Source: a virus
Virus genome (UHGV): UHGV-2195224
DNA length: 57,074 bases
Strand: one strand, 5' to 3'
Shown in pieces: positions 18,259 to 45,650 of the stretch. Within the stretch, counting starts at the first letter, position 1. Every line of letters begins with the position of its first letter. The notes under the pieces are model-generated. The model ran no database searches, was not told the DNA's origin, and was given only the letters and a program-made list of their open reading frames with translations. The translations under genes and the position numbers were made by a program.

Positions 18259-18279
18259 ATTTTACATCATCATAAAACA

Positions 18280-18305
18280 ACGGGCGTGTTATACGCCCGT
18301 TTCAA
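18280..18305. terminator. bidirectional hairpin between int and the icd fragment
   Basis: stem acgggcgt/acgcccgt with gttat loop, flanked by AT-rich tracts. Confidence 0.45.
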
Positions 18306-18324
18306 TATTTAACACATGTAGAGA

Positions 18325-20219: not shown

Positions 20220-20405
20220 GCTTACGATTGACCCCACTGCGAAAAGCGCAGATTTTTATCAATGGACGTACATAGGGTAGATAAGGCACAATACTGCTTC
20301 AATGTCGTCTGATGGTATTGTAATACTAATTACATCAGATGATTTAACTAGATTAGTTCTTTATAGAAATCATTCTTGAATATTAATTGGCTGACTGAGG
20401 TTTTT

Positions 20406-22934: not shown

Positions 22935-23527
22935 TGAAACCTGTTTTTGATGAAAATGGGCTGGCTACAGTGCCGGGCGATATGCGTTGTTTTTATTATG
23001 ATGCTGAAACATCTGAGTATACGGGCTGGTCTGATGAATATATTAATACTGGCGTAAGTATGCCCGCCTGTTCAACTGGTATTGACCCGGGCGAAAACAT
23101 TCTGGGAAGAGTGACGGTATTTACAGGTAAGGGATGGAGCCATGAGGAAGACCATCGCAATGAGACTGTTTACTCAATCGAAAATGGTGCAGCTGTTACA
23201 GTGGATTATATCGGTGCCATCAAAGACGGTTATGTCACGCTTTCACCGTTAACGCCATACGATAAATGGGATGGTGAGAAATGGGTGACAGACACTGAGG
23301 CACAACACAGTGCCGCAGTAGACGCGGCAGAAGCACAGCGCCAGTCACTGATTGATGCAGCAATGGCTTCCATTAGTCTGATTCAGCTGAAATTACAGGC
23401 CGGACGGAAACTGACTCAGGCAGAAACAACCCGACTTAACGCCGTGCTGGATTACATTGACGCGGTGACGGCAACAGATACCAGCACCGCGCCGGATGTC
23501 ATCTGGCCTGAACTGCCGGAGGCGTAG
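22934..23527 (+). CDS. tail fibre assembly protein (Tfa; partner of the silent fibre cassette)
   Basis: 197-aa ORF MKPVFDENGLATVPGDMRCFYYDAETSEYTGWSDEYINTG... Confidence 0.8.
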   Translation: MKPVFDENGLATVPGDMRCFYYDAETSEYTGWSDEYINTGVSMPACSTGIDPGENILGRVTVFTGKGWSHEEDHRNETVYSIENGAAVTVDYIGAIKDGYVTLSPLTPYDKWDGEKWVTDTEAQHSAAVDAAEAQRQSLIDAAMASISLIQLKLQAGRKLTQAETTRLNAVLDYIDAVTATDTSTAPDVIWPELPEA

Positions 23528-23927
23528 GCCATTCAATATCGGGTGCTGTTGACGTATCAACACGCATCAGCAGCACACGGTATTTCTTCCATTGGGTGAG
23601 AGTTGTAGCTTCTTCATCAGTTGCGATATCAGCATCAACAGCATCCTGACGCCAGGATATTTCACTGTCAGCCTTTTCCCGTAATTGGGATTTTTTAACT
23701 TCAGCAATAGCTATTAATTCCTTTTTGGTCGGCTGAGGAATATCTATCAGTGCTGGTTTTCCATTCAGTGTTCCAATCTGTTTTCCTGGTGGAATATCCA
23801 TAAATAACTTTTTATGTTCTTCCTCACTGACTATTACACCATCATCAGGCCACAGACCTGATGCCTCAAATTTTTCTTTCTCCGATATGGGGAAAAAGCC
23901 ATTTGCTTTAGCGCTCCATACGTACAT
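23499..23927 (-). CDS. tail fibre assembly protein (Tfa; partner of the expressed fibre)
   Basis: 142-aa ORF MYVWSAKANGFFPISEKEKFEASGLWPDDGVIVSEEEHKKLF...; C-termini of the two convergent Tfa genes share ...RVDTSTAPDIEWP... Confidence 0.8.
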   Translation of the reverse strand: MYVWSAKANGFFPISEKEKFEASGLWPDDGVIVSEEEHKKLFMDIPPGKQIGTLNGKPALIDIPQPTKKELIAIAEVKKSQLREKADSEISWRQDAVDADIATDEEATTLTQWKKYRVLLMRVDTSTAPDIEWPTPPAVQAR

Positions 23928-23928
23928 A

Positions 23929-24513
23929 TCAATACCCCACCGCTATAATGTCCACATTAAATCCCCCGGGACCTGCCTGCCAGATGCTGGCCCCTGTTAA
24001 TGATTTTGTTTGATGAACAACCGCCACATTTGCTGGTGATTGTGTTTCAGTTGTTACAGTACCGATATCATTCCAGTTAATTGAGATGGAATAGTTCGTT
24101 GTTGTAAACGACCGGGGGAAAGTTATATGTCTTACATTAGTGCCAATAGGAAATCCAAGATAAACACGCTGAATTATCATTCCTCCAGGTAACATAACCC
24201 AGTTAGCACCTTCTCCCAAACCAAGGTTTTCGAGAGCCGTTTTCACCGTGCCATCCGATTTGATATCGCCAAACGGATTCTTGCGGCTTAACAGCAGCGC
24301 ACGAAGCGCTGTAAGCAGCTGGTCATGCCGCCCCTTCTCCAGGCTGGCACCGGATGCCTCCACAACACTGCAAAGTTCCTCCTGCAACATGTCAAAGTAG
24401 TCATCATCCAGATCGGTGGCAGGTGTGCCGGTCTGGGGGTTACCACGGGTAAAACCGTTCTTACCCGCGCCGAACTTATCCTTCTGCGCGGTTTTCGTGT
24501 CTATACGATGCAT
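23929..24513 (-). CDS. tail fibre protein (Mu S / e14 StfP-like), expressed orientation
   Basis: 194-aa [50 protein letters not shown]...; contains the 26-bp crossover site at the constant/variable junction. Confidence 0.8.
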
Positions 24514-24516
24514 GGA

Positions 24517-25101
24517 TTACTCCGGATATTTAAAAATTACGTAGGTATGCGACGGGCAGAGTTTGTTAAGCACACACTCGACAACGGTGTCGCCCCAGAT
24601 ACGCAGTGCGGAATCACAGGGATCGCCACATGTCATCCAGGTGGTGTTGGTGGCGGCTGGCATGTTGACCTGCCAGTAATACCGCCATTCCGGCGCATTC
24701 ACCGCGTCAGTACAGGCCGATGAGCAGGTGAACGTGCTTTTGTCGTATCGCGTGATGGTGGCGTCTGGTCTGCCCAGGGCAGCAAGCTGTGCAAGGTAAA
24801 AATCCTCATTGATGCCGCCCGCCAGGTTAACCTTCGCATCCAGTCGTTGCTGACGCTGGCGAAGGGTCTGTGTCCCTGCGGGAATACATTCATCCGGCAG
24901 GCCGCACAGACGCTCCCAGCGATTTATCAGTTCGGTGGTGGTGCGCGGATCCAGCTCCCGCATCAGGGCATCCGCACGCTGATGAACGCGGGTTAATGAC
25001 GGTGCCGCACCGGCAATCGCCGGATCGCTGGCTGACCACGCCGGACCGGGGGGCAACAGTGCCGACAACAGATGGATGTAATCATCGTTTGTCACGTCCA
25101 T
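24517..25101 (-). CDS. baseplate/tail protein (Mu gp48 / e14 YmfQ-like, DUF2313)
   Basis: 194-aa ORF directly upstream of the fibre gene; [31 protein letters not shown]... Confidence 0.65.
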
Positions 25102-26150
25102 GAAATCGTCCCCAGTACCGCCAGTTCATTTTTTGCAATGGAGATATTGTCCGCCGGTGCAAGCAACTGATGGCTGTATTCCCCGTTCGCACCGGAAATC
25201 GCCTCACTGATACGCGACACCTTCAGTTCTCCCTGCGGATAACCATCACGCAGCAGGAACGAACGCAACTCGGCGGTGATGGCAGCCCGTATTTCCGGTG
25301 TGTCCGGCGTCACGCGGATATGAAAATCCACTTTATGCGCCACCGGCCTGAATACATACAAATCAGAGCCTGCCACCGGGGCCAGTGGCTCAATGTGTTG
25401 TCTTGCCGCCGTTTCCGTTGATTCTTCCGGAATGGGATTAATCAGGTCACTGCTGGCAATCATCACACCGACAGTCCCCGTTCCCATCCAGTGGCGGTAT
25501 GTCCATGCACGGGTAATGCCGGGCACTTCTTTAGCCCAGACTACATAGTCCCCGTCAGCCCCGCCCTGAGGCGTCCCGTAATACCGCTCAATGACGCGGG
25601 CGCGCCACGTTTCCAGCTCTTCAGTATCAAATCCACCTGTCAGAGTGTCTGCCACGCCGGAAGACGGCAGACCATTCACCGGCGTGACCAGGATTAATGA
25701 CGTACCGTCGTCAGCGTTACCGACCGCTCCTGCACTTGAGCAGGCGATCGGCACGCGCAGGACACCACCGGCGCTGGTTGCATCGGCAGTTGCCGTGTAC
25801 TGAACCAGGTCATCGCGCTGAATAACACTCCCGGCGGTCACCTTCAGGCCATCGCTGACACCTTCCCAGCGCATATACCCGCTGGCAGCCGTGGCCCCCT
25901 TGCGCGGACACCGTTTCATCGCAGCATGTCGCGCCAGCCAGGACTCATCGCACAGGTCAGGCAGCATGTTCATTGCCAGATAATCGATGTAACCGTAAAC
26001 CGTATGCAGCGCCGCCGCATACACCTTTGCCCGCACGTCTTCATCCATGCGCCGGAGCGTGTCGCTGACGTCCAGCCTGGCGAATAAATCGTTACGGAGC
26101 ATACTGATATTTTCTGCCAGCGTCGGGCGCTGAAATTCACTGTCCGCCAT
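25092..26150 (-). CDS. baseplate J-like protein (Mu gp47 / P2 gpJ family)
   Basis: 352-aa ORF; synteny within Mu-type baseplate module. Confidence 0.75.
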
Positions 26151-26565
26151 GCGTTATCGCACTCCACAGATCATCAAAAGAAATCATTACCGGTCCGTCA
26201 CGACGCCAGAGAGTGATACTGTTACCCAGTTCATTAATCCCGGTGCGGCGGATATCCAGATCAATACGGGACACCACACCGTCATCAATCATCCATTGCA
26301 GGCATTCGCGGATATACCCCCTTACCGTCTGCACCAGCTGATTGGTCAGTTTGCCGCGCTGAAGCAGCCACAGCCGGGAGCCGTAACGGTCATTCTGTAC
26401 CGCAGGCCAGGTATCCCCCCACCATCCCATCGGGACGTCGGCATTGTCATCAGGCTCCGCCCGCCGCCAGGTGAACAGGGAAATCACCACGGCGCGGGTC
26501 AGCGGATCCAGCGGTGCGCTGGCGCAGGTGCGTTTACCGTTCACCGTCAGCCACAGTTCCATCAT
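26137..26565 (-). CDS. baseplate protein (Mu gp46 / gpW-like)
   Basis: 142-aa ORF between spike and J-like genes. Confidence 0.6.
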   Translation of the reverse strand: MMELWLTVNGKRTCASAPLDPLTRAVVISLFTWRRAEPDDNADVPMGWWGDTWPAVQNDRYGSRLWLLQRGKLTNQLVQTVRGYIRECLQWMIDDGVVSRIDLDIRRTGINELGNSITLWRRDGPVMISFDDLWSAITHGGQ

Positions 26566-27110
26566 GCCTCCATCGCTTTATCCGGTTTGTCGGTGTTACT
26601 GCCCTGACCGTTCTCTCTGTGACGATGGCCGTTATAGGCAAGCCGCATCGCTGACATGGTGGTGCCGCCGGAGTCGCACAGGTCTTTCACCTGTCCGGTC
26701 ACTTCCAGGTCCATTTCAAAACGTGCTCTGGGCGCATTGCGAAACGTGATCGTTTTACCTGCACCGTCCACCACGATCCCCTCCCGGGTCAGCGTCACAG
26801 ACTGCCCCTGATCGTCATAGACAGCCACCTCACCCGTCTGCAGCCCTTTCAGGCGGTAGCGCCGGTCCGACACCGTAACAACCACCGCATGAGAACGGTC
26901 GCCATCCGGAAACAACACCACCGCTTCCGCACCGCTGTTTGCCCTTGCGGTAAAACCGTAGGGTTCAAGATGTTCAACCCCGGCTTTGGGTTCACCGGCA
27001 ATCAGGGACACATCCACGGTCTGACATTTCGTGGCGGCACTGATGCTTTTCACCACTGCCCGCCCAATCAGGCCGAGAAGTTGTCGCTGCATGGCTTCAA
27101 TCGTCCTCAT
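26562..27110 (-). CDS. baseplate assembly protein V / spike (Mu gp45-like)
   Basis: 182-aa ORF; synteny. Confidence 0.65.
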   Translation of the reverse strand: MRTIEAMQRQLLGLIGRAVVKSISAATKCQTVDVSLIAGEPKAGVEHLEPYGFTARANSGAEAVVLFPDGDRSHAVVVTVSDRRYRLKGLQTGEVAVYDDQGQSVTLTREGIVVDGAGKTITFRNAPRARFEMDLEVTGQVKDLCDSGGTTMSAMRLAYNGHRHRENGQGSNTDKPDKAMEA

Positions 27111-28189
27111 CAGAACGGGTCCTCCTGTACTCTGGCTTTTTTCTTTTTCCGCGCGCCGGGGTCTTCAGGTTCAGGCAGATAAGCATCAGGCGGGCCGACA
27201 CGGATTTCCGTCAGGGTGCCGTTCTGGTCCTGAGTAAACGTGACTTCCGAAACAAGCAGTTCGGTATTGTCAAAACCACAGACCGGATCAAAGACAATCA
27301 CCCGCTGGTTGGGTTGCCACAGCGTACCGTTACCCTGTCGCCAGCCCTGCACCACATAGGTGGTTTCATCCGTCCGCGCCGCCCGTTGCCGGGCTTCAAA
27401 GTCCGCACGGGCAATACAGCCTGCCCCCGTAGCCTGCCCTGTCTGCCTGATATACATCGGACGGTAACGGGCAATAAATGCGTCCTCTGTGCGGGCCCGC
27501 AGCGCGGTGGTGGTGGCCTCACCGAAATCATCGTCGTTTCCGGCACGCTGCCCCGCCACCTGGTAAACTGAAAACCGATCCCGGATACTCTTCTCCGTAT
27601 CACAGGAAAGGATGTTTTCCCCAAGTACCAGCGCGGTATGTGCCCGCGTTGAGCCAATACCACCAATCACCAGCCTGCCGTGCGGGTCGTCATAAGCCAG
27701 CGCCTGCTGCTGACCGAGTATTTTGTTGATCACCTCAATCACCGTTTCACCGTGATCAGGCTGGACATCCGGAATAACACCCGACGGCGCATCGCTGTTC
27801 ACCACCTCAATGCCGAAAGGCGCAGCAAGCGCCTGCGCAATCTGTACCAGCGATCGTCCGTTAAACTGTGTCGGTTCGGCTGCACAGTCAATCAGGTCAG
27901 CAGTCAGACTACGTCCGGCAATACCGGTGCTGACCGAACGGGCATCGTAACGAACGGGGGTCGCCTCCACCCAGCCGGTGATCACCAGCTCATAACCAAT
28001 CAGCACTTCCACTTTTGAACCATTTTTAATGCGCGGCTGAAGCGTGGTGATACCCTCATCTCCCGGCCACTGGCGGGTGATCTCCACGCTGAAATCCCGC
28101 GCCAGCCGTTCAATACCGGCACCGATGCGCACCGATGTCCAGCCATTCCACTCCCGGCCATTTACCCGTAGCGTGACGTTATCGTTCAT
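27110..28189 (-). CDS. baseplate hub / tail protein (Mu gp44 P-like, P2 gpD family)
   Basis: 359-aa ORF MNDNVTLRVNGREWNGWTSVRIGAGIERLARDF... Confidence 0.7.
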   Translation of the reverse strand: MNDNVTLRVNGREWNGWTSVRIGAGIERLARDFSVEITRQWPGDEGITTLQPRIKNGSKVEVLIGYELVITGWVEATPVRYDARSVSTGIAGRSLTADLIDCAAEPTQFNGRSLVQIAQALAAPFGIEVVNSDAPSGVIPDVQPDHGETVIEVINKILGQQQALAYDDPHGRLVIGGIGSTRAHTALVLGENILSCDTEKSIRDRFSVYQVAGQRAGNDDDFGEATTTALRARTEDAFIARYRPMYIRQTGQATGAGCIARADFEARQRAARTDETTYVVQGWRQGNGTLWQPNQRVIVFDPVCGFDNTELLVSEVTFTQDQNGTLTEIRVGPPDAYLPEPEDPGARKKKKARVQEDPF

Positions 28190-29514
28190 TGCACTGGCAC
28201 CTTCAGAGGGATCACCGGCACAAAGCCGGGATGCGTAATGGCATTACGCCGGATAATGTCCGCGTCACGCGCCGCGTTATCAAACCAGGTCGCCGCCAGC
28301 ACCAGCGCGGGTAAAACCTCATCCGGTGTGCGCTGAATGATCCGTGCAGACTGTTCAAGGCGCGTGTTGATATCCGCATTCAGATCTGCTTTCACCCGGC
28401 GCAGCGCCAGAAACAGCGCATCGCTGGTTGTACGGGACAACTCCTTATCAATTGCCGTATTCAGTGTGTCGCGAATGTCAGTCAGTTCTTCCCACGTCGG
28501 CAGGTCAACCGTGTTTTTCACCGCCGGTGCATTGTTCAGTGCCGGATGCGTGACGGAAGGCCAGCCAGTGCTCTGCGCGGGTGTTGTTGCCTGCCCCACT
28601 GCGGAATTCTGCATCACCGCGGAAGTTGTTGGCGCAGGCAATCGGGTGACGGCATACGCCGCTTCGCTGATTGCGGTCGTACGAAGGGTGCTGGCAACCA
28701 CGTTACGCTGCTGCGTCGCCGTGGCGGTGGTTTTACTGTCCGTTTTCCAGACGCCGCGCGGTTGCAGATCGCTGCCGAGGCTGACACCGGAAAGCGTTTT
28801 GATCATGGTGACCAGGTCGCTGGCGTTACCATAAAGGCGTTTCCCGGTACGCCACATTTTTTGCACCTGCTCAACGAAGTTTTTGCCTGACGATGGCGGA
28901 GGCAGAAGTACCGAGATATCCCCCTGCAACAGTCTGGCGGCATCCGATACGGCAGAATCCACCACTTTCATCGCATCAGAAACATACCCAAGCATTGTGC
29001 TGGCATTACCGACGACGTCGTTCTGCACAAAATCCGCCACGCCATCGATACTGAAACCACTGAAACTGTCACTGATGCAGTCATCCAGTGCAGAACAGGA
29101 TGACATCAGCGTCTGCGCCGTCGCCGCACCTGAAGTGGGGTAAGAGAGTTCTCCCGCTTCGACAAACTTCAGGTCAAAGCGGACAATACGCCCTTCACTC
29201 TTCGATGTGCTGACCCGAACTTCTCCGTCAACACAGACTTTCAGCTCACCGTAAGTCGGATGGACAAGCGTGCCGGGACCGGGTTTATTCAGCGCGTCAA
29301 TCAGGCGATCGCGCTGGTCAAAGCAGTCATCTCCCACCACATAAGCTGTGATGGACGGGCGGAAAGTGATTTTCCCCAGGTCTTCGGTATAGGGTTTGTC
29401 GCAGTTCGGGTATTCGTGCGTTTCCACACGACGACCGGTTCCCGCACTTTCTTCTTCAACCTTAAACGGCACACCGCGAAATGACGCGTCCTGAAGTCTG
29501 TCTTTCCACGTCAT
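28186..29514 (-). CDS. DNA circularisation protein (Mu gp43 N-like)
   Basis: From internal ATG: MTWKDRLQDASFRGVPFKVEEESAGTGRRVETHEYPNCDKPYTEDLGK... Confidence 0.7.
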   Translation of the reverse strand: MTWKDRLQDASFRGVPFKVEEESAGTGRRVETHEYPNCDKPYTEDLGKITFRPSITAYVVGDDCFDQRDRLIDALNKPGPGTLVHPTYGELKVCVDGEVRVSTSKSEGRIVRFDLKFVEAGELSYPTSGAATAQTLMSSCSALDDCISDSFSGFSIDGVADFVQNDVVGNASTMLGYVSDAMKVVDSAVSDAARLLQGDISVLLPPPSSGKNFVEQVQKMWRTGKRLYGNASDLVTMIKTLSGVSLGSDLQPRGVWKTDSKTTATATQQRNVVASTLRTTAISEAAYAVTRLPAPTTSAVMQNSAVGQATTPAQSTGWPSVTHPALNNAPAVKNTVDLPTWEELTDIRDTLNTAIDKELSRTTSDALFLALRRVKADLNADINTRLEQSARIIQRTPDEVLPALVLAATWFDNAARDADIIRRNAITHPGFVPVIPLKVPVQ

Positions 29515-29574
29515 ATAAACTCCGTACATAAAAAATCCCACCGGAGTGGGACTCATTAACAGATTAATTTTTCA

Positions 29575-31410
29575 TTACCTGCCAAAGCGCGTATAGCCAA
29601 CATCATGGCTGACATCAAAACCGCTGGATCGCGTTTCCATAACCCGCATACCCGGAGGCGAATTCACAAAAGAGACCTTGATCTCACCATCAACTTTTGG
29701 CGCAGAAGCTTTGTTAATCATGAAGGGATTCGGGCCTGTGGCATCGGAGGCGTTGTTTGACTGAGCCGGATCCACCGCCGGATAAGGTGTGTATCCCCGC
29801 GCCGGTATTCCCGTCCCATAAGCATCATAAGCACCCGCGCCCCACTGCGCAGAGTTAATGGCATCGACCGTGTCACCGGAACTGTCGGTAAACCACTCAA
29901 TAATTGGCTTCAGCTTGTCCCACATATCCTGAAACCACTTAACAACCGGCCCCCAGTTATTGATCACCATCCCCAGCGGCGACCAGGCAAAAACTTTCTT
30001 AAGGAGTTCCCAGCCGGCCTCAAAATAAGGACCAATGGTTTCCCAGAGTTTCTTAAAATAAGGTCCGACAACATCCCAGTTAGTGATAATTAATCCCGCA
30101 GCCAGGGCTATCGCCGTCGCAATCATGCCAATCGGCGTCATCGACATGATCCTGCTGACAATACTGATGGCACCGCCAACGCCCATCAATCCCAGTTTCA
30201 GAATCGCAAGACCGGCAGCAAGCCCGACGACGCCGCGAATAACCCGGGGATTTTCATCCGCAAACTTCGTGAATTTCTCCCCCAACTCCCCCAGCCATTG
30301 CGTGATATTTTTAGCGTCACCAGAAAATGCGCCGCCAATAGCTGCAAGACCGTTAGTTGCGGTCCCCGTCATTGCCTCCCACAGGTTGGACAGCGTACCA
30401 AGCTGTGCCTGAACACGTTTATTCAGGCTGGCCTGTTTATTCATCTTCTGCTGGATCTGATCGTAACCATCCTTCCCTTTATCGATCAGAGCATTGACCA
30501 CCTGAAGGGTTTCGGCATCATCACCAAATATTGCCTTAAGTACACCTGTTCGCTTAACGTCGGTCAGTTTTCGCAGCTTTGCCAGTTGCCTGAACATGTT
30601 ATCAAGACCGCCAAAACTCCCTTTGCCGTCAGTAAAATCGAGCTGCACTCCGAGTTTCTGGCGGGCCATAACTTTATTAACGTCCCTGATTTTCTTAACG
30701 CTTAATCCGGACTGGATAACTTTTCGCAGGGCATTACCTGCCGACTCCCCGTTCATCCCCATCTGATCCATCATGACGCTGATGGGGGCAAGGCTCTGTG
30801 CAGCCTGAAGACCATCCTTGTTCACCATCTTCAGAACAGAACTGGTTTTAGTGAAGAAGGACAACATGTTGGTATCGTCAACGCCCAGATAAAACGCCTT
30901 CTGGATAGTGTCGAACAGCCCCATCATGTCTTCTGACGCCGTTCCGGTAGCATCCTGCATCTTTGCAGCAAACTCAGCAGCCGCTTCCGGTGTTTTTTTC
31001 AGTTGTACCGCAAGATAGGCTGTCGCTTTACCCACACCACCCAGAATGTTTTCTGCCGGGATCCCCTGACGCACCAGCATCTGCATCATGTTCTGGAAAT
31101 CAGCCGTTGTACCGGGTAGCTGGTTACCCAGGCCAATAGCCAGTTTATTGATGTCCTGAAAGCGCTTTCCGACCTCACCGTTCGCATCCATCATGGCAAC
31201 TTTCAGCCCGGTGGCGGCGTTTTCCTGATCGGCATAAGATTTCAGGGAAAGCGTCAGACCCGCAGCCAGTCCGCCACCAAGCGCCAGCCCACCCTGTGAC
31301 GCTTCTTCCGCCTGGCGTTTAAATCCCCGGATTTTCTTTTGCATTTTCGACAGCGCGGGAGAAAGCCTGTCGACACCGGTGATCAACGCCTTAAGCTCAA
31401 ATTCAGCCAT
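29575..31410 (-). CDS. tail tape-measure protein
   Basis: 611-aa ORF with Ala/Gly-rich helical repeats and hydrophobic segments; between chaperone and baseplate genes. Confidence 0.8.
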   Translation of the reverse strand: MAEFELKALITGVDRLSPALSKMQKKIRGFKRQAEEASQGGLALGGGLAAGLTLSLKSYADQENAATGLKVAMMDANGEVGKRFQDINKLAIGLGNQLPGTTADFQNMMQMLVRQGIPAENILGGVGKATAYLAVQLKKTPEAAAEFAAKMQDATGTASEDMMGLFDTIQKAFYLGVDDTNMLSFFTKTSSVLKMVNKDGLQAAQSLAPISVMMDQMGMNGESAGNALRKVIQSGLSVKKIRDVNKVMARQKLGVQLDFTDGKGSFGGLDNMFRQLAKLRKLTDVKRTGVLKAIFGDDAETLQVVNALIDKGKDGYDQIQQKMNKQASLNKRVQAQLGTLSNLWEAMTGTATNGLAAIGGAFSGDAKNITQWLGELGEKFTKFADENPRVIRGVVGLAAGLAILKLGLMGVGGAISIVSRIMSMTPIGMIATAIALAAGLIITNWDVVGPYFKKLWETIGPYFEAGWELLKKVFAWSPLGMVINNWGPVVKWFQDMWDKLKPIIEWFTDSSGDTVDAINSAQWGAGAYDAYGTGIPARGYTPYPAVDPAQSNNASDATGPNPFMINKASAPKVDGEIKVSFVNSPPGMRVMETRSSGFDVSHDVGYTRFGR

Positions 31411-31821
31411 GTGTGCGTTTCTCCTGCTCTATCCTGTTTGCCTGACTGACCAGTAAGGGAATTTCACTGATCGGCATATTCAGCAATTCGAAGGGATTAA
31501 TGCGCCAGTAGCTGGCGCAGTCAAAGAAGCGATCAGTGAGGTATTCAGCCGTCAGGCCTGGAGGAAAAAACCAGCCACAAGCCACGCCGCTGCATTCAGG
31601 TCTGCCGGAGACATCTGGTCGACAGAGTTTTGCGGCACTTTCGCCAGCCGCACAATGTATTTCGATACCACATGCGCCAGAAGTCTGACGGACTCATCCT
31701 GATTCATCTGGTAGGGATACCCCAGCTCGCGGACATCTTTCCCGGTGGGCTCATCAAACTCCAGTACGGAGAGTGTCTCGCCATGAGCGGTAATCGGTTT
31801 CTTTAACTCAAGCTCTTTCAT
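31403..31821 (-). CDS. tail assembly chaperone pair with probable programmed -1 frameshift (G/GT-like)
   Basis: 89-aa ORF 31552-31821 overlaps a -1-frame ORF running to 31403; overlap contains slippery heptamer T TTT TTC (plus-strand gaaaaaa at about 31564-31570). Confidence 0.55.
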
Positions 31822-32177
31822 TACTGGTAATCCCCTTCTTCACCGTGGAACTCAAGATCGACCGTGCCTTCTTCGGCATTATGGTTCGCTTCGCCGTGCA
31901 GCCAGGCAGACGACAGTACATAGACCTGACCGTTCGCCAGCTCGGCAGTGATGGTCATCTCATCAGACGAGGTGATTTTGCTCACCGGAAAATTCTTCGG
32001 CACCTTGAAGGTCCCTTTGACATAGGGCGCACGGTGAGTTTCCTTGCGGTCCACTGAACCGTCCAGGCCGATGATGTCATCATTGACCGTCCTGTTCATG
32101 GGCACCTCAATGCCGCCGGTCAGCGATAGCTGCTGACCGTCAATTTTGAAATAACAGGTTCCCCCGATACGGGCCAT
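31821..32177 (-). CDS. tail tube protein (Mu gpM-like)
   Basis: 118-aa ORF directly downstream of the sheath gene. Confidence 0.7.
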   Translation of the reverse strand: MARIGGTCYFKIDGQQLSLTGGIEVPMNRTVNDDIIGLDGSVDRKETHRAPYVKGTFKVPKNFPVSKITSSDEMTITAELANGQVYVLSSAWLHGEANHNAEEGTVDLEFHGEEGDYQ

Positions 32178-33673
32178 TATGCAGACTCCTCTGAATACTG
32201 AAGACGGAACTGGTTAACCACGGCAAAGACACGCAACTGGTTAACATAGTCAGGCGGGAACAGCGTGTTCAGGCGGTTCGGATCGCTGGCATCACGCTCC
32301 ACAACCAGGTACTGCTTAAACAGTTCGTAGTTTTCCACGATCCCCGCACGCTCGAGCTGACGGTAGGTTGCCAGCAGTTCCCCTTTGATCACCGCCGGGG
32401 TGACAATCGCCTGACCGGGACCAAAGCGGGTACCGTCACTGGCAAGCTTGTGACGCCCGTACTTACTGGTAATGACGGATTTCAGTTTGCGCAGTACATA
32501 CGCGCTGGTATGCAGCGTCTCGCTGTCGAGGTAGCTGTTATCCGCAACCCCGTAAGCGTTTTTCCTGTACGTGGTGACATCACGCTGAATGCGCAGTACC
32601 CCGCTTTCGACATACGCCGTTGCCACGCCATGAGACAGCAGGGTCTGTTGTTCGGTCATCGTGAACCGTTTCCCCTTCGGCGCAGGCAACATACCCACCA
32701 GCTCACCGGTCTGCGTGGGACGTGCCGGATCGTTGCGGATAAACACCGCTGCGCGGGCGGTACGGCTTGCCGCCAGCTCGTCGGCAGGCGTCTGGGTCTC
32801 TTTTTCGTACCCCGCCAGGGTGATGTGCTGCTGGTTAAACTGGTCACCTGCGGTCACCAGTTCTGACAGCGTGCCGATCTTTGCCGTATACACATGACCA
32901 TACAGCTGACGCGCATAGCTCCAGCGACCGCTGGTATCGTTCATCTCGGTCACCAGCGTGTTAACGGAGGCCGTGTCGTTGAACGGCAGACCGATATAAT
33001 CAAACGGCTCATCCGCCATTGCAGCCACCGCACCGGTGAGAACCGGAGCGCCCGTTCCGGCGGTCCCCGTCGCCACGGCAATCTGTACGCCCGCTGGCAG
33101 CACTTCGCCCCCACCGAAGCCGTAGTAATTGAGGCTGACAGGAATTTCATTCCCGCAAAGCCCCTTATGACGCGCGGTCAGTGTGACCACGCCTGCCGAA
33201 GATGAGGCCGTAAACGGCAGGGCCGGAACGGCATTAATGGCATCCTGGATACTGCTGGCAATCGTCGTGACGTTATCGCCGTTAGTCACCGGTGCCTGCA
33301 CGCGGGTACGTCCCACATAAACATTCACCGTGCCGGTTTCGGTTGCTGCTCCGGTCACCGTCAGCGTAACCGTTGCCGCCGCGCCTGTGGCTTCCGGAAC
33401 GGCAATCACATACAGCTCGCCAAACGGGTCGGTCTGGCGATAAGCCTCGACCATACGCGCCAGCTGACTTCCCGCACCACAAATCTGGCGTGCATAGTCT
33501 GCCGACGGCATCAACACCAGACTGTTGGCAACAATCTCTGCACCGTTATTGGCGTGACCAATCAGCAACGATGCCCCGCTGTCCTGTGCAGTATTCGCCG
33601 CCTGGTTATCCATTTCCGCATAAAACAACGGAACCAGCGTATTCGACGGAATGGTGTTAAAGCTTATCGTCAT
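32177..33673 (-). CDS. contractile tail sheath protein (Mu gpL-like)
   Basis: 498-aa ORF MTISFNTIPSNTLVPLFYAEMDNQAANTAQDSGASLLIG... Confidence 0.8.
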   Translation of the reverse strand: MTISFNTIPSNTLVPLFYAEMDNQAANTAQDSGASLLIGHANNGAEIVANSLVLMPSADYARQICGAGSQLARMVEAYRQTDPFGELYVIAVPEATGAAATVTLTVTGAATETGTVNVYVGRTRVQAPVTNGDNVTTIASSIQDAINAVPALPFTASSSAGVVTLTARHKGLCGNEIPVSLNYYGFGGGEVLPAGVQIAVATGTAGTGAPVLTGAVAAMADEPFDYIGLPFNDTASVNTLVTEMNDTSGRWSYARQLYGHVYTAKIGTLSELVTAGDQFNQQHITLAGYEKETQTPADELAASRTARAAVFIRNDPARPTQTGELVGMLPAPKGKRFTMTEQQTLLSHGVATAYVESGVLRIQRDVTTYRKNAYGVADNSYLDSETLHTSAYVLRKLKSVITSKYGRHKLASDGTRFGPGQAIVTPAVIKGELLATYRQLERAGIVENYELFKQYLVVERDASDPNRLNTLFPPDYVNQLRVFAVVNQFRLQYSEESA

Positions 33674-33835
33674 CGGTATTCACCTTTTTATTCACGCGCC
33701 GGATATCACCCGCTGCTTCACGGCGCAGCCAGTAGTTGTTCTCGTCAACATTTCGCCCTTCGGCGGGCAAAAGGTCGCCGCGGGCAGGGTCAGGAACTGA
33801 CCGCCCTTTAACAGGTTTGACAAACATGAGGATCC

Positions 33836-34396
33836 TCAGGAAGGAAGGGTTATTTCGGTGTGATGTTCGATATCGCCGTCAGGCCCGTTACCGGGCTCGA
33901 GATAATCAACATCAATCGCCAGCGTTTGCAGTTCATCCAGACTGTTCAGATCATCCTGCTGGCGGGTATCGTCTTCGGTCAGCTCGCTGATGATCGAAAA
34001 ATCGAACTGATAAATCAGCTCATGACGATTCAGATCCAGCAGCGTGCCGCCGTCATAGGTAATCGGGTTACCGCACGCTTCCGGGTTCCAGCCCAGCAGA
34101 GCCTTAAAGAGCATCTGCCGGACATCGTCCACCACATCATACGAGGCAAACTGACCGCGCTCATCACGCCCGTTACTCAGTATGACAACCACGGAGAAGC
34201 CCTCTTTCAGCTCCTGCCAGTAGTCGGTCTGGCTTTTGTTTTCTCCCGGAGAGTCATCACCCGGTACCACATACGCCGCCGGGAGTCTCAGCTTTCCGAC
34301 CTCCGGCAGATTTTTGAACTGTGCCGCGCCTGCCACCCGGTTTTCAAAATACGGGCAGCGGGCACGCAGCGCAGCAATAACAGGCGTCAGTTTCAT
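33836..34396 (-). CDS. phage tail-associated protein (Mu gp37-like)
   Basis: 186-aa ORF; synteny. Confidence 0.45.
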   Translation of the reverse strand: MKLTPVIAALRARCPYFENRVAGAAQFKNLPEVGKLRLPAAYVVPGDDSPGENKSQTDYWQELKEGFSVVVILSNGRDERGQFASYDVVDDVRQMLFKALLGWNPEACGNPITYDGGTLLDLNRHELIYQFDFSIISELTEDDTRQQDDLNSLDELQTLAIDVDYLEPGNGPDGDIEHHTEITLPS

Positions 34397-34899
34397 CTGC
34401 GTCGTCGCTCCGGCTTCAGTGATTTACGTAATTCCCGCGCCAGAAAATAGCGTGTCCAGCTGCGGTTCTTTTCAAGAGTTTCCACCATAAAGTTATTACG
34501 TGGAGCCAGCCGCCAGCCGCTGCCACCGGATGCACCACGATGATGACTACGACGACGTTTTGCTCCTCCCCGGACACCAAAAAACAGAAACGCCGGATAG
34601 AAGTCACCAGAGATCATCCGGTTCCCCTTCCCGTTGCGCTGGTTAGGGGCAATGCGTGTCATAAAACCGGCTCGCTTTTTACTGGCTCCCGGCACCATGT
34701 AACCAATCGAACGAGCCAGGCGTCCGGTCTGATAACCGGGGTTTTCACCCGGTGCCGACCGCGCACGGCGCATCACCAGCCGACGAGCATCACGCATATG
34801 ACGCTGCCCAATCGTGACAAACGCCCGCCGGACACGGGCGCGGTTAAAGCGCATCTCCGCGGGCTGCTGAACATCAACGTGAAAAAAGGGAGTCGCCAT
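34393..34899 (-). CDS. virion morphogenesis / tail completion protein (Mu G-like)
   Basis: internal ATG MATPFFHVDVQQPAEMRFNRARVRRAF...; synteny. Confidence 0.5.
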   Translation of the reverse strand: MATPFFHVDVQQPAEMRFNRARVRRAFVTIGQRHMRDARRLVMRRARSAPGENPGYQTGRLARSIGYMVPGASKKRAGFMTRIAPNQRNGKGNRMISGDFYPAFLFFGVRGGAKRRRSHHRGASGGSGWRLAPRNNFMVETLEKNRSWTRYFLARELRKSLKPERRRR

Positions 34900-35284
34900 T
34901 GCTGCCTCCGTGACTCTGCGTAAATTCGCCCAGCTCCGTACACTCCAGCAGCAGAAAGCGCCGCGCACCGTTCAGATCGCGCTGACGTTTCACCCGGTAC
35001 ACACTGTCACCGCAGACCACCTCATAATCAGCGGTGATCCCCCGGCGGTAGCGAATGGTGATGTAATGGGTGATGGCGTCTCCGGTCTGCGCGGTTTCCT
35101 GCCAGGTGGTGGCACTGGTCTGGACAACCTTCGCCCATGCCCGGAACGCAACCGGGTATTGAGGCTCCACGCCAAAGTTATCCGCGGGCATATCCACCCG
35201 CTGGCGGATCAGGACGCGTTTATTCAGTTCGCCGGGGTCCGGCAGAATGTAGGTTGCGCTGGTCTGCGCCTGACGAATTTTCAT
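34874..35284 (-). CDS. head-tail adaptor / head closure protein
   Basis: 136-aa ORF between connector and tail genes. Confidence 0.5.
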   Translation of the reverse strand: MKIRQAQTSATYILPDPGELNKRVLIRQRVDMPADNFGVEPQYPVAFRAWAKVVQTSATTWQETAQTGDAITHYITIRYRRGITADYEVVCGDSVYRVKRQRDLNGARRFLLLECTELGEFTQSHGGSNGDSLFSR

Positions 35285-35604
35285 TGCGGAAAGTACCTGT
35301 ACGGGCCAACAAGCCAGCCAAAACTCTGCGGCATGTCGAGTTTCTCCACTTCCGTAACCGACGAGCGGTTTTCGTAAAAATGGCTGATAAGCATCAGCAT
35401 CCCCAGACGAATATCATCCGGCAGGTGTAGTCCGTCCGGGTCGCTGTCCGGAATGGTTTCATCCGGTGCATAGAGCTTCCGGTTCAGATACGTTTCCGTC
35501 CGCTTTTGCGCCGCACAGGCCAGCAGTTGCAGATGGCGGTCATCAGCATCGAAATCCTCATCCAGCCGGAGTTGGGCTTTAATCTCTTCCATTGTCAGAA
35601 GCAT
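35281..35604 (-). CDS. head-tail connector protein (gp6-like)
   Basis: 107-aa ORF MLLTMEEIKAQLRLDEDFDADDRHLQLL... Confidence 0.55.
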   Translation of the reverse strand: MLLTMEEIKAQLRLDEDFDADDRHLQLLACAAQKRTETYLNRKLYAPDETIPDSDPDGLHLPDDIRLGMLMLISHFYENRSSVTEVEKLDMPQSFGWLVGPYRYFPQ

Positions 35605-35606
35605 AC

Positions 35607-35807
35607 TCAGCCCTCTTTACTGGTCGTGGCTTTTTTCTCTTTTGTCGCTTTACTGCTTTTTGCACTGGTTCCGCGCTCTGCTAACCCGGCCTGAAGTGCA
35701 ATCTCCTGCACCCGGGCAGGAAGCGCCCCGTCGTCATACTCACCGGCCCGAATGACCTCAACACGCATACCGTCCGGTGACCATTTCAGATCTTGTTTCA
35801 GGATCAT
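35607..35807 (-). CDS. small hypothetical head-module protein
   Basis: 66-aa ORF, Lys-rich C-terminus. Confidence 0.35.
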   Translation of the reverse strand: MILKQDLKWSPDGMRVEVIRAGEYDDGALPARVQEIALQAGLAERGTSAKSSKATKEKKATTSKEG

Positions 35808-35855: not shown

Positions 35856-37060
35856 TTACGCCGCTGCAATCTTCAGCAGTTTGATGGCCTGCGAATCGAC
35901 CAGCATCCCGCCGGTGCGCTTGGTGGTATAAAAACCGACAAACGGTTTATTGGTGTACGGGTCGCGCAGAATGCGGGTGCCGATACGGTCAACGATGGTG
36001 TAACCCCGTTTGAAGTTACCAAATGCAATGGCTTTCGCATCAGCGGCGATATCCGGCATCTGTTCGTTTTCAGCGATACCGTAACCCGCCAGAGAGGACG
36101 GCTGCCCCAGTTCCAGCCCCGGACGCCACAGATAGTTACCCTCGGTGTCTTTCAGCAAACGGATGGCAAACAGGCTGTTGTTGTTCATCATGAACTTCGC
36201 GCCGGTGCGGTGTGCCTTTCGCAGCGTGTAAATCAGTTTGATAATGGCGTCTGCGGTCACCCCCGTCGCTTCGCCGGATACAATATGCTGAAGTTTGCCG
36301 AACGCCCGGACCTTATCGGTTTCATCGGTGGATTCATACGCCAGGAACCCTTCGGCTTCTTGGTACCATCGCCTGAGGTAAAGGCAATTTCTTCCTGTTC
36401 GGCAAATTCGGTTGCCAGCTCGCTGTTGATCCAGGCCTCCACGTTGAAGAAGGCATCGTCCAGCATTTTCTGGGTAGCCTGCGGGTTGCCGTAGATTTCC
36501 CCCATGAGAGGTTCAATCAGCTCCAGTCTGGAGGTGGCAGTCTGGGATCGCGTATCCGTTTCCCCCACCCATCCGGAAGCCGTACCGCCCAGATTCACCA
36601 GTTTTTTGTAGTCGGAACCGCCAACGGTGATCACCGTGGCTTCCTGACGCATCACCACTTCATCTTTCAGCAGGTTAAGAATGTTGCGATCCAGTTCTTC
36701 CGGCACGGCGTAGCCACCGTCTTCATCGGTGCCCACCTGCAATGCCTTACGCTCCAGATCGCGCAGACCGTCTTCACGGCCTTTACGCAGGAAGCCCACA
36801 AACGCCTCTTTATGCTCGGTGGCCAGTTTATTTTGCGCTCCACCTGCCGGACGTTTCAGCTCAAGCAGCTCTTTTTCAAGATCGCTTTTGAGGTTTTCCA
36901 GCTCGCTGAGTTTCCCGTTCAGGGTTTCCACCTGCCCGGCAAGTTTGCCTTTTTCCTGCTCAATCGCATCCACGCGCTTGTCGTTCTTTGCTTTGAAGTC
37001 GTCAAACTTCTGCTGCAGCTCCTGCGCGACCTGTTCGACATCTTTAATATCAACCGCCAT
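35856..37060 (-). pseudogene. HK97-family major capsid protein, reading frame broken by a 1-nt indel
   Basis: N-terminal part (track ORF 36257-37060) and C-terminal part (35856-36260) are in different frames; C-terminal frame stays open upstream of its ATG (FLAYESTDETDKVRAFGKLQHIVSGEATGV...); switch at minus-strand GGG run near 36366-36372. Confidence 0.65.
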
Positions 37061-37074: not shown

Positions 37075-37761
37075 TTAGAAGTTCAGATTTTTCAGTGCAT
37101 TCAGTGCAGAGCCCACATCCTCAGCGTCGCGCAGGGACAGTGCGCCATAGCCCCCGGCCATGAATGCTTTGGCCTGGGTACGGGAGAGTCCGACATCACG
37201 CAGGACTCTTTCGATTTTTTTCTGTTCGGGGATTTCCCCGCGGGCCAGTGCGTTCTTGACGTCGCTGATCCGCGCCTCGTCGTTAGACGGGAACGTCACT
37301 AGGCTGACTTCCCAGAGGTCGATTTCTTTCAACAGAAAGGCTTCTTTGCTCCGGTCGTATTCCCAGTCTTTCAGGACGTACCCAATAGAAAGGCCGGTTA
37401 ACGAACCGGCCTTCATGTGTGCATGTGCGCGTTTTGCGAGGGGATCATCATCAATAAGCAACCGTCCCCTGACGTAAAGCCCGACATCGTCTTCCTTCAT
37501 TTCGGTGTAAACACCGATGGGTTCATCCATGCGGTGCTGCCAGAGCAGCGCAGGTAACGCTTTTCTGTCACTCCACGCCCGCAGGGAAGCAGCAAATGCC
37601 CCGGACATCACCACATCATCGTGGCTGTCCTTTACACCAAAGACGGAGCCATACCCTTCAAACTCACCGGAGTCACTGACAGATTTCAGACTCAGCGGTA
37701 CATCAAGACGTTGTTTCGTCTGCATTGGCGTTATCCTTCTGCTTACCGGCTTTACTGCCAT
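37075..37761 (-). CDS. prohead protease (HK97 family)
   Basis: 228-aa ORF ...ALPALLWQHRMDEPIGV...; between portal and capsid. Confidence 0.8.
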   Translation of the reverse strand: MAVKPVSRRITPMQTKQRLDVPLSLKSVSDSGEFEGYGSVFGVKDSHDDVVMSGAFAASLRAWSDRKALPALLWQHRMDEPIGVYTEMKEDDVGLYVRGRLLIDDDPLAKRAHAHMKAGSLTGLSIGYVLKDWEYDRSKEAFLLKEIDLWEVSLVTFPSNDEARISDVKNALARGEIPEQKKIERVLRDVGLSRTQAKAFMAGGYGALSLRDAEDVGSALNALKNLNF

Positions 37762-38944
37762 CGGAGGGTTTCGTGGTCATGTTCATCGGTGTGAGATAGA
37801 CATCACCACCGGGACGCGGATTCATATCTTCCAGGTCGCGGCAGTCATTGGGAGAGTAAATTCCCCAGTTGATCCCGGTGGCGTAGGCTTCAAAACGGGA
37901 CTTCATATCCCCGCGCAGTAACGCCCCGGCGTTAAATTTGGCGTAATAAACGCCCTGCTTACTTTTTCGTACCAGTCCGGTGTTGATCCGCTGTTCGATG
38001 CGGGTCAGATACGGCACCAGTGAATAGTTGATAAATCCGAGCCCCAGTTCTTCGATATTGTTGAAGGTGGCGCGATCGGTGTTCTGCACCATGTGCAACG
38101 GTACCCGGAACAGACGACAGATTTCTTCAAGCTGAAACTTGCGGGTTTCCAGGAACTGGCTGTCCTCGGCGTTCAGCGCCATCGACTTCCAGTCCAGCCC
38201 CATCTCAAGGATCATCGGGCGGTGAGCATTGCCAAGCCCGGTGTGACGCTCCTCAAAATCTTTCTTCAGGCGCTCATAAGCCTGATCTGACAGCGTCTGC
38301 TCTGTACGCAACACACCCGACGTCACCGCACCATTGCTGAACAGTCTGGCCCCGTGCTCTTCAGTCGCTGCCGCCAGCGATATTGCCTCGCGGGCATAGG
38401 CGATGGGATTCAGCCCCACCAGTCCGTCCAGCGTCAGCGTGCGCACATGCCAGATATCCTCCTGGCTCAGCACATCCGTGGAGCCGTCCGGGAATGTGAC
38501 CTGATAGACCGGCTCCCAGCTACTGTTAAGCTTCGGTACCACACAGCCAGGATCGACGGGCAGCAGTTCAGCCACTTCGCCAAATGCTTTCACTTTGTAG
38601 GCGTAAAAGTTTCCCCTCAGGCACAGACAGGTGACCACCAGCTCCCAGAACTCCTGCGGCGTCATATAGCCATTGGGATGCGTGGAGATCAGCTTATGCA
38701 GACGTTCGCCGGTGGCTCTCTGCTTCAGGCTGCCATTCAGGTGATACAGATTGCAGGGCAACATCCCGACCGACTCTGCCAGCACTCTGATGCAGGAAAA
38801 AACCGCCGTCAGTCGCATGGCCCGCTGACTGCTGATCTGCTTTCCGGTATAGGTGTCGTAGGACAACCCGATGGCATCCGCCAGCTCTGCTGGCGTGGTC
38901 ACCGGTGCGTCACTTTTTCGTTGAAATAATCCCGAAAAGAACAC
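37703..38944 (-). CDS. portal protein (HK97 family)
   Basis: 413-aa ORF downstream of terminase. Confidence 0.8.
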   Translation of the reverse strand: MFFSGLFQRKSDAPVTTPAELADAIGLSYDTYTGKQISSQRAMRLTAVFSCIRVLAESVGMLPCNLYHLNGSLKQRATGERLHKLISTHPNGYMTPQEFWELVVTCLCLRGNFYAYKVKAFGEVAELLPVDPGCVVPKLNSSWEPVYQVTFPDGSTDVLSQEDIWHVRTLTLDGLVGLNPIAYAREAISLAAATEEHGARLFSNGAVTSGVLRTEQTLSDQAYERLKKDFEERHTGLGNAHRPMILEMGLDWKSMALNAEDSQFLETRKFQLEEICRLFRVPLHMVQNTDRATFNNIEELGLGFINYSLVPYLTRIEQRINTGLVRKSKQGVYYAKFNAGALLRGDMKSRFEAYATGINWGIYSPNDCRDLEDMNPRPGGDVYLTPMNMTTKPSDGSKAGKQKDNANADETTS

Positions 38945-39126
38945 TATTTACCTCCGCCGACAGACGGCTGTGTACGGTCGAGATATCGCGCCACCAGCCA
39001 CGACCAGAACAGGCACAACGCCCCGGCAACAACAAACCCCGCCGGGGGATAAATCAGCCAGGCACCATACGCCAGCAAAAGCGCCCCCAGCACGCCCACC
39101 AGAGGCGCGAGAATCAGCATGATCAT
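38944..39126 (-). CDS. small hydrophobic protein (two predicted TM helices)
   Basis: 60-aa [51 protein letters not shown]... Confidence 0.35.
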
Positions 39127-39137
39127 AATTACCTCAG

Positions 39138-40871
39138 TTAAAGCGAGCGGATCCCATAGGACTCAATGTGGTCAGACAGCGTGTCTTCTTTCTCGTACAG
39201 CATGGCTCTGCCAACCGCCATAATCAGCGCAACTGCACCATCGATTTTGTTTTCCGCCTGCTCTTTGACGGGCTTCACCACATCATCGTTACCCGGAATG
39301 GTTTTGCCGACCACGTTGCCAATACACCAGGTCATGATGGGATTGCCATCATGATGAAAGCGCCCCGATTCAATTGCCGCTTCCAGCTCTTTCATCGGGT
39401 CGGACATGTTGGTGTAGTTCTGAATGATAGTGATGGGGTTCAGGTCTTCATCAGCAAGGTCATGTGACAACCCGGTCGCCCCGAAGGGGTCGATGGGTGA
39501 CTCACTGACCGGACTGATTTTGTTCGCCGCTTTGGCCTCCTCGAGGATGTAGCGATAATCCACCTCCGCACCATCGGTAACGGTCAGAACGCCCATTTCC
39601 ACCCATTTCTGAAAGCGTTCGGCTGTCCGGCGATCTTCATTTTTCTCGACGCTGTACACCGTGTCATACGGTACCCAGAAACGCGGGGCCACACTGTAGT
39701 AATGCGTTTTACCGTCAATCTCGCGGGTATAAAGTCGCGCCATGCTGTTCATATCCAGCTTACGCGCCAGGTCAAAGGCCAGAATGCACGGCTGCCCCTC
39801 GAACTGCTCAAGAGTCAGTGATTTATCCTCGCAGCTCTGCCAGCTCACCAGGTTGAAATACGCCGAACGCGCCGACACCCAGATATTGAGGTGTTTTGTT
39901 TTAAAGACGTTTGCCAGACGGGCGTTATTTTTCGCACGCTGCTGCTGACTTAACAAAAATTCGCGATAAACCGACACGCCAATATTCGGGTTAGCTTTTT
40001 CCAGCACCTGCGGGTCGGTCCAGTCATCGCCTTCGTCAACGGTATAGATGATCCCGAACAGTTCATCGTTGGGTACCGACCCGTTGAGCATCTCGATAAC
40101 TTCCCGTCGCTTGTCGTAGCACGGCCCCTCAATGTTGTACCCGGCAGTAGTAATGGCCCACATCAGTGGCTGACGTCGCGCCCCCATCCCGGTAAGCATC
40201 GTGGTGTAAAGCGCATCGGTGGCGTGCTCGTGATATTCATCCACCACCGCACAGTGGGGTGATGAACCATCACCGGGGTTACCGATCAGCGGTTCAAACC
40301 GCGCGCCATCCTCCGGACGATTCATGTTTGAGGCGTTAACCTCAATCCCGAACGCTTCCGTCAGCATGGGTGTGCGTTTACACATCAGTCGCGCCGGGCG
40401 AAAGACTTCCCACGCCTGTTTCTCTGTCGTGGCACCGGAATACACTTCCGCGCCAAACTCGTTATCACAGGCAAAACAATACAGGGCAACACCGGCAGAG
40501 ATTGCCGATTTGCCGTTCTTACGGGGGATTTCGGTATACACCTCCCGGAAGCGGCGCAGCCGGGACCCTTTATTGACCCAGCCAAACGCACAGCAGACCA
40601 CAAATAGCTGCCACGGCTCCAGCGTGATGGGCATCCTCTTGAATGCCCACTCACCCTTGGTGTGCGGCAACAGCTGAATAAATTTGGCGGCCCGTTCAGC
40701 CAGGTCCTTGTCGAAGCGGTAACGAAACGACTTACTTTTTTCCGCCATCAGGTCATCAAGATGGCGCTGGCAGGCCTGAATCACAAACTGGCAGGCCACA
40801 ATCTTTCCGCGCACAACATCACGGGCATACTGATTGGCAGCATTTACGTTGGGGTAAGATTTCCGGCTCAT
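39138..40871 (-). CDS. terminase large subunit
   Basis: 577-aa ORF with Walker A-like PRKNGKS and C-terminal nuclease domain. Confidence 0.9.
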
Positions 40872-41884: not shown

Positions 41885-42373
41885 TCAATCTATGAACACT
41901 ACAATTCTAGAATATATTTTTTCTATTTTTGATAAGTAGCACTTTTTATTTCCACCAGTCAGAATATATTGACTATAATCAGTCCTGAGTTGTCTCCATT
42001 CATCATGTATACTTTTATCTTTAATCCCCCCTTCACATAAAACCCATGCTCTCACTGCATTCTGGTATGCTGATTCAAGGTTTTCTTTCATGAAATATAG
42101 TTGTGCTTCATCATCAACTCGGTGAACAACAGCATTATACTGCTGTTTAACTCTTGTTTTAGCTATTCTATATTGTGTGGAATCCCAATTATCGGGCATT
42201 GCCTCAAAGGCATCCTCCAGCTCAAGTAAAGCTCTTTTAAACTCTAACTTTACTTTAAATTGCTCTTGTCTATTCCATGTGTTTAACGCCTTGCGTGCAT
42301 AACACAACGCCCCCAAAGACGCGATAGCCGAACCACAAGCCCCAATAGCAGACCACATATTCCAATCAATCAT
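41885..42373 (-). CDS. uncharacterized membrane-anchored protein (single N-terminal TM helix), AT-rich cargo
   Basis: 162-aa ORF with SD ggagg; MIDWNMWSAIGACGSAIASLGALCYARK...; between spanins and HNH/terminase. Confidence 0.5.
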   Translation of the reverse strand: MIDWNMWSAIGACGSAIASLGALCYARKALNTWNRQEQFKVKLEFKRALLELEDAFEAMPDNWDSTQYRIAKTRVKQQYNAVVHRVDDEAQLYFMKENLESAYQNAVRAWVLCEGGIKDKSIHDEWRQLRTDYSQYILTGGNKKCYLSKIEKIYSRIVVFID

Positions 42374-45074: not shown

Positions 45075-45650
45075 ATGATTAGTATATTTTCACATTTATT
45101 TAGACCGTTTGGTTACCTTTTCATTAAGGGAATTAGTGGTAAGTGCGCATACGATTTTTATGCACCTGCCGGGCTTGCTGTGATTTCTTTTTTTTACTTT
45201 TATTTATTTAAAATACCTACATCAGACCTACTAAAAGATGGCGGCTTTATTAAGTCTATATCTGGATTTGTATCAAATCTGCCAGGTTTTTATATAGCAG
45301 CTCTTGCAGCAATAGCCACTTTCAACAGAGAACAAATTGACTACCCTCTGATAGGAACTAATGGCACTCCTTTTATTAAAATTACACGAACAAAAGAAAA
45401 TGGTAGAATTGTTGACACTCAAGAGAAACTTACCAGAAGATTATTTCTGTGCATGTTATTTTCATTTTTAACTGCCCTCAGCATATGCATAGTGATTTTC
45501 AACGCTTTTATCACACCACTAATAAACATACTGAATAATGATATAGCAAACTGGTGCTATATCATTATCTTTTTATTCCTTACATGGCAAATGCTTGTTT
45601 CAACATTTTTTGGACTATACTATCTTGGTGATAGGATTCACATTAATTAA
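45075..45650 (+). CDS. uncharacterized integral membrane protein (191 aa, about four TM helices), second gene of the cargo operon
   Basis: Starts 8 nt after the upstream stop with SD gagg; hydrophobic runs AGLAVISFFYFYLF, LPGFYIAALAAIATF, LFLCMLFSFLTALSICIVIFNAFI, WCYIIIFLFLTWQMLVSTFFGLYYL. Confidence 0.6.
   Translation: MISIFSHLFRPFGYLFIKGISGKCAYDFYAPAGLAVISFFYFYLFKIPTSDLLKDGGFIKSISGFVSNLPGFYIAALAAIATFNREQIDYPLIGTNGTPFIKITRTKENGRIVDTQEKLTRRLFLCMLFSFLTALSICIVIFNAFITPLINILNNDIANWCYIIIFLFLTWQMLVSTFFGLYYLGDRIHIN

Follow-up and report, generated by a model that had tools for sequence, protein, structure and literature searches.

A very probable recent loss-of-function deletion of one base in the capsid gene of an SfI/SfV/e14-like myovirus prophage

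The closest described relatives of the prophage analysed here belong to the SfI/SfII/SfIV/SfV/e14 group, in which a gene order from small terminase to capsid and connector is followed by a Mu-like contractile tail. Shigella phage SfI is a viable, inducible, plaque-forming myovirus (PMC3636060), and its capsid gene is intact (401 aa). ST64B of Salmonella Typhimurium, a member of the same group and the nearest analogue of the present case, is otherwise complete but non-infectious through a single frameshift, conserved across strains, in a tail assembly gene (PMC7067206). The capsid gene of ST64B is 91.5% identical to that of our prophage; ST64B has been studied by experiment, whereas the prophage described below is known from sequence alone. 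Resuscitation of ST64B by spontaneous revertants was reportedly described by Figueroa-Bossi and Bossi in 2004. The e14 element of Escherichia coli K-12 is much more degraded than the prophage analysed here and is not known to carry head and tail modules.

The stretch of DNA under study (the window) comprises 57,074 nt of the viral genome UHGV-2195224, and, to judge from the regions 17069-18488 and 55947-57074, two prophages appear to lie in it in tandem at icd. The integrase of prophage 1, which is lambdoid, is bordered by the final ~164 nt of icd (about 18325-18488); prophage 2 begins right after this icd fragment and extends beyond the end of the window, with a lambda-type integrase at 55947-57074 on the plus strand. 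By its HK97-type head, its Mu-like tail and its near-identity to named members, prophage 2, a prophage of E. coli, belongs to the SfV/SfI/e14-like temperate myoviruses, and it shares their gene order: small terminase, large terminase, ymfR-like gene, portal, S78 protease, capsid, connector and head closure, then tail terminator, sheath, tube, tape measure and Mu-like baseplate. It also carries the e14-type genes ymfK/L/T/R/Q and a lambda-type integrase, and its position beside the 3'-end fragment of icd fits insertion at icd, as in e14. In contrast to the SfI-type phages, it has no gtr serotype-conversion cassette and bears other cargo instead. At the nucleotide level its capsid gene shares 96-98% identity with those of SfI, SfII and SfIV, but while the SfI gene is intact, the window copy is frameshifted. 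The comparisons presented here make it very probable that this is a recent, genuine and heritable loss of function, caused by the loss of one A from an A3 run in codon 237 of the capsid gene of an SfI/SfV/e14-like myovirus prophage.

Table 1. Coordinates of the capsid gene, its parts and the adjacent modules in the window
Feature	Position	Strand	Evidence
Disrupted major capsid protein gene (HK97 family)	35856..37060	-	100% coverage of intact 'phage major capsid protein' genes
N-terminal ORF, 267 aa	36257..37060	-	PF05065 match; exact protein on 11 contigs
C-terminal coding part, -1 frame	35856..36350	-	Homologous to residues 238-401 (GFLAYESTDE...KLLKIAAA); PF05065 match
Stretch with both frames open, 256 nt	36257..36512	-	No X XXY YYZ slippery heptamer
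One-base deletion site: plus TT (minus AA) against TTT (AAA) in all intact relatives	36351..36352		Alignments
Intact upstream head/packaging genes: prohead protease (S78), portal, ymfR-like small protein, large terminase	37075..40871	-	Full length, 98.3-99.8% identity to intact relative; Pfam
Intact downstream head-completion and Mu-like contractile-tail module	23499..35807	-	Single full-length match per gene; Pfam

The capsid gene of the window is 1205 nt long, as against 1206 nt in its intact relatives, which are annotated in RefSeq as 'phage major capsid protein'. It matches the PF05065 family profile and has the typical neighbourhood, with the portal (PF04860) and then the Peptidase_S78 (PF04586) genes immediately upstream. 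When the 401-aa capsid protein of a relative was aligned to the window by tblastn, it fell into two pieces, residues 1-238 in frame -2 and residues 234-401 in frame -1, so that the whole HK97 fold is not encoded in one continuous frame; the first-pass annotation had rightly placed the N- and C-terminal parts in different frames. Both products, of 267 and 134 aa, are matched by PF05065 (Phage_capsid) in the precomputed annotation of an identical contig. A continuous 401-aa protein homologous to both halves occurs in 1098 of the 5426 complete E. coli genomes, and because both halves are homologous to this one protein, the two-frame pattern is no chance arrangement. To judge from its sequence, the window copy is a pseudogene of an HK97-family capsid gene, not a functional member of the family.

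The N-terminal ORF consists of 237 native residues, which cover the delta/scaffold domain and the first part of the HK97 fold, followed by 30 out-of-frame residues (SWRMNPPMKPIRSGRSANFSILYPAKRRG) and a TGA stop. The C-terminal ORF, as given by the ORF listing, starts with a GTG at 36260 and ends at 35856 (134 aa), and upstream of it the same frame reads ...EGFLAYESTDETDKVRAFGKLQHIVSGEATGVTADAII... without a stop. It is open from 36512, that is, over 321 nt before its first ATG at 36191. Thus the overlap of the C-terminal frame with the end of the N-terminal ORF, noticed at first reading, is borne out by the 256 nt over which both are open, while the figure of about 110 nt of open frame before the ATG has to be replaced by 321 nt. 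The GTG of the C-terminal frame shares its last two bases with the TGA that ends the truncated N-terminal ORF (GTGA, 36257-36260). Coupled re-initiation at this site could in principle yield the 134-aa C-terminal fragment, but the overlap is probably a coincidence.

Alignment to intact capsid genes, which had been proposed as the means of locating the missing base, places it at the TT of plus 36351-36352 and confirms that a single-base indel breaks the gene. Against the allele of E. coli C1, which encodes protein WP_021576801.1, the alignment has one 1-nt gap and 0 mismatches over 1206 nt, and one gap is also seen against phage SfI, whose capsid gene is 98.0% identical. A 1216-nt query from the window spans 1217 nt in every full-length match listed from complete E. 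coli genomes, as well as in the matches to the E. coli/Shigella phages SfI, SfII and SfIV. At nucleotides 709-711 of the reference, CCGAAAGGGTTCC is changed to CCGAAGGGTTCC: the relatives read CCG AAA GGG TTC CTG (P K G F L) where the window reads CCG AAG GGT TCC TGG, and the A lost from the A3 run of codon 237 (AAA GGG to AAG GGT) stood directly 5' of a G3 run, the CCC/GGG at 36348-36350. The earlier proposal of an indel inside the G run is therefore not upheld, as the missing base is an A of the neighbouring AAA (AAAGGG to AAGGG). Loss of a G from an AAGGGG parent was rejected, with 0 complete E. coli genomes having AAGGGG in the same context; the alignments indicate that the parent allele lost an A, not a G. 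The motif gaagggttcc had been correctly recognized as the place of the frame switch, but it lies at plus 36344-36353 and not at 36366-36372; the lost base stands ~15-20 nt from the latter coordinates.

A missing base in such a place may also come from sequencing or assembly error, in which case the true genome would read AAAGGG and the capsid gene would be intact. The short homopolymer context, A3 beside G3, is compatible with this reading, and so are the absence of the deletion from the 5426 complete E. coli genomes and the fact that some other split copies of the gene (L008, L015, L016) have a split portal and protease too, which looks like assembly error. However, an artefact should not be reproduced by independent sequencing, whereas three or more datasets, each sequenced independently and 0 to 3 substitutions away from the window, carry this deletion, and 11 contigs encode the exact truncated protein (Table 1). 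The three loci from different sources that share the deletion are ERZ28568594 from ENA, a metagenome scaffold from sample SAMEA2580220 (0 substitutions over 20.8 kb), OGPN01000106 (3 over 19.7 kb) and SRR31283963 from Logan (1 over 16.8 kb). OGPN01000106, ERZ1745613 NODE_106 and JGI 3300045988 are one 60,892-bp assembly under three names. Being near-identical, the carriers represent one lineage sequenced several times and not many independent events. Every neighbouring gene in the carrier assemblies is of normal length, an A3 run is too short for a typical error hotspot, and no other compared gene of the window is frameshifted.

General poor quality of the assembly was likewise rejected. Apart from the capsid site, the whole window shows three 1-nt indels relative to close relatives: in an intergenic A7/A8 run at 1213, in an intergenic G4/G5 run at 35828, where the window has the same state as E. 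coli C1, and at 53375, where an alignment block starts. The A7 run at 1213, which is A8 in the closest E. coli relative, lies just upstream of an ompC/nmpC-like porin gene of prophage 1, according to the annotation of the relative. Since independent sequencing reproduces the deletion and the window is not prone to homopolymer errors, the deletion is best taken as a real mutation that has been passed on in a single lineage of close relatives. A homopolymer error, which the first-pass annotation had kept as an alternative, is highly improbable; the same deletion and the exact 267-aa product in independent samples effectively refute it.

The mutant allele is rare. An 80-nt query across the site finds the deletion in none of the 5426 complete E. 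coli genomes (the best match, 98.8%, has one gap), and an exact 35-mer spanning the deletion has no match either in the GTDB representative genomes or in IMG/VR. Its one match in JGI metagenomes is the same 60,892-bp contig and adds no sample. IMG/VR has at least 120 contigs with the corresponding intact 36-mer and 0 with the deleted 35-mer, and the identical intact capsid protein is present on 467 contigs. The 134-aa C-terminal fragment is found in NCBI records of E. coli HVH 188 and others, a match at the level of the fragment.

The open overlap of the two frames calls for consideration of recoding, by which a programmed -1 ribosomal frameshift or transcriptional slippage would give a full-length capsid protein and a functional prophage. 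Some phage structural genes do use programmed frameshifts, T7 gene 10 and the tail assembly chaperones among them, and a -1 shift anywhere within the 256 nt would join the frames. But the signals are missing: the overlap (36512..36257) contains no X XXY YYZ heptamer in the zero frame, the codons CCG-AAG-GGU at the switch leave the tRNAs no way to re-pair in the -1 frame, and a long A/T run on which the polymerase could slip is likewise absent. For the 86 nt downstream of the site the minimum free energy is -17.2 kcal/mol against a mean of -24.7 for shuffled sequences (z = +2.25), and none of the 200 shuffles folds less well, which argues against a stable stimulatory structure. Moreover, the two-frame arrangement is not conserved, all listed relatives being single-frame (1217 against 1216 nt), and a single uninterrupted frame is found in more than 1000 relatives, the viable phage SfI among them. 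Because the allele is otherwise identical to the intact one, recoding signals would have had no time to evolve. With neither a slippery heptamer nor a downstream structure, programmed frameshifting was rejected, and a functional gene by recoding is very improbable. Low-level spontaneous ribosomal frameshifting may occur, but the resulting capsid yield would be negligible.

The rest of the prophage looks fully preserved. When the 51 proteins of an intact relative, from E. coli GPEC620-622, were compared with the window, each of the 50 genes besides the capsid gave a single full-length match in one frame. The downstream module (Table 1) includes connector, head closure, terminator, sheath, tube, tape measure, baseplate and fibre genes, and the Pfam families present are sheath, tube, DNA_circ_N, Mu Gp45, GP46 and baseplate J. 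Since all compared proteins but the capsid match over their full length in one frame (50/50 other genes intact), the earlier description of an otherwise complete module holds, and its companion claim, that the prophage is defective for virion production, follows as a prediction from the sequence. The mutation itself is very young, because the gene is otherwise unchanged relative to the intact allele and all the other compared prophage genes are intact.

The reconstructed protein aligns with the capsid protein of RcGTA (PDB 6TB9) over residues 31-400 with E = 1e-75, which extends the homology to a solved HK97 fold over the full length; the alignment was made with the protein of an intact relative, which is the same as the window gene but for the deletion. 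The RcGTA protein (Rcc01687, PDB 6TB9/6TBA) shares with the reconstructed protein the motif F-x-SGDG-x-KP-x-GFL, and it is there, at residue 237/238 within the conserved core motif F-T-S-G-D-G-x-K-P-K-G-F-L, that the break lies. Unlike the RcGTA capsid, the window copy is not continuous, and the first 237 residues alone are made in frame. The break removes the C-terminal 164 residues (41%) of an HK97-fold protein, a part which in this fold would hold most of the A-domain and the C-terminal strands of the P-domain. The 267-aa product is made up of the coiled-coil delta domain, the N-terminal portion of the fold and 30 unrelated residues at its end; we infer that it could not form capsomers or heads, and very probably the prophage would be unable to make virions.

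A simple course of events can be proposed. Replication slippage is the likely cause of the deletion of one A, after which translation would give the 267-aa product with only the scaffold-like delta domain and the N-terminal fold. Induction would presumably be followed by excision and replication, by the assembly of tails and by lysis of the cell, but neither heads nor infectious particles would form. The lesion in ST64B lies in a tail gene and leads to tail-less heads, while the lesion in the window, in the capsid gene, is predicted to lead to head-less tails. Insertion of one base in the AA or the GGG run would restore the wild-type protein, so rare revertants are possible: because AAA GGG and AAG GGG both read Lys-Gly, an added A or an added G would give back exactly Lys-Gly-Phe-Leu. 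By analogy, a one-base insertion could revive this prophage as reversion reportedly does ST64B.

Other disruptions of the same gene exist. In the collection, 166 indexed blocks contain the 134-aa C-terminal fragment, and among ten loci that we fetched there were other, independent disruptions of the capsid gene. A G5 run at nucleotides 558-562 of the gene (window 36499-36503) has lost a G in three assemblies (L008, L013, L015) and gained one in a fourth (L011), and may be a small mutational hotspot, or a hotspot of sequencing error in lower-quality assemblies. Three loci (L009, L012, L017) have premature stops without an indel, which we infer to be nonsense changes, one (L014) has an internal deletion and one (L016) a double frameshift. 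The assemblies of L008, L015 and L016, in which the portal and protease genes are split as well, are probably error-rich. As intact copies are in the large majority, the overall picture suggests ordinary decay in a prophage family that is very abundant.

The same observations could be read as selected inactivation, or domestication, in which the mutation is real and capsid knock-outs are favoured in the prophage family, either because the spread of the phage is stopped while cargo and defence genes are kept, or because a tailocin-like head-less element results. In keeping with it, the gene is broken in different ways in other assemblies, the 134-aa fragment recurs across the indexed blocks, the tail and lysis modules are intact, and candidate defence cargo is present. 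But intact copies vastly outnumber broken ones, and neutral decay of a large prophage population gives the same pattern; some of the broken copies come from assemblies with many frameshifts and are probably errors; and loss of the capsid gives the host no protection from lysis on induction. Selected inactivation is thus unlikely. Still less probable is a specific version of it, an incipient tailocin-like element that has lost its capsid gene but kept its contractile-tail, lysis and regulatory modules and would free killing tails on SOS induction, with the capsid knock-outs reflecting selection or a hotspot switch. If it were true, the repeated knock-outs, several of them in the G5 run, would represent a switch between phage and head-less element rather than neutral decay.

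The preferred reading, a young and heritable loss of function through one missing A, describes an already known kind of event, an ordinary young pseudogene in the ordinary course of prophage decay, and the deletion raises no new biological question. It does have practical consequences. Annotators should mark the capsid gene as a true pseudogene instead of repairing it as an error, and should score the prophage, for all its complete appearance, as one that probably makes no virions. It offers a clean, datable first step of prophage decay, with one lesion and all else intact, and it illustrates that tools that score prophage completeness by gene content can overcall functional phages.

Several cargo genes of prophage 2 deserve mention. 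Between the holin and the Q antiterminator, two genes are encoded antisense (44039-45067 and 45075-45650, both on the plus strand). They have no Pfam family, are 100% identical in E. coli GPEC620-622, and match PDC-M53, one of the candidate defence systems in PADLOC (M53A, E = 2e-31; M53B, E = 1.7e-54); by these matches the pair looks like a candidate defence moron. At the left end there are three more cargo genes on the plus strand (18934-19902, 20376-21191 and 21589-22257). The 322-aa protein among their products matches models of PtuB/HNH-type nucleases of Septu-like systems (E = 1e-23), with no PtuA ATPase partner seen, the 271-aa ORF has no family match, and the third gene encodes a SRAP (YedK-like) peptidase (PF02586). 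Finally, a 162-aa ORF without a Pfam or PADLOC match lies between the HNH endonuclease and the lysis genes (41885-42373, minus strand), and at about this position the relative carries a gene for a GrlR-family regulator.
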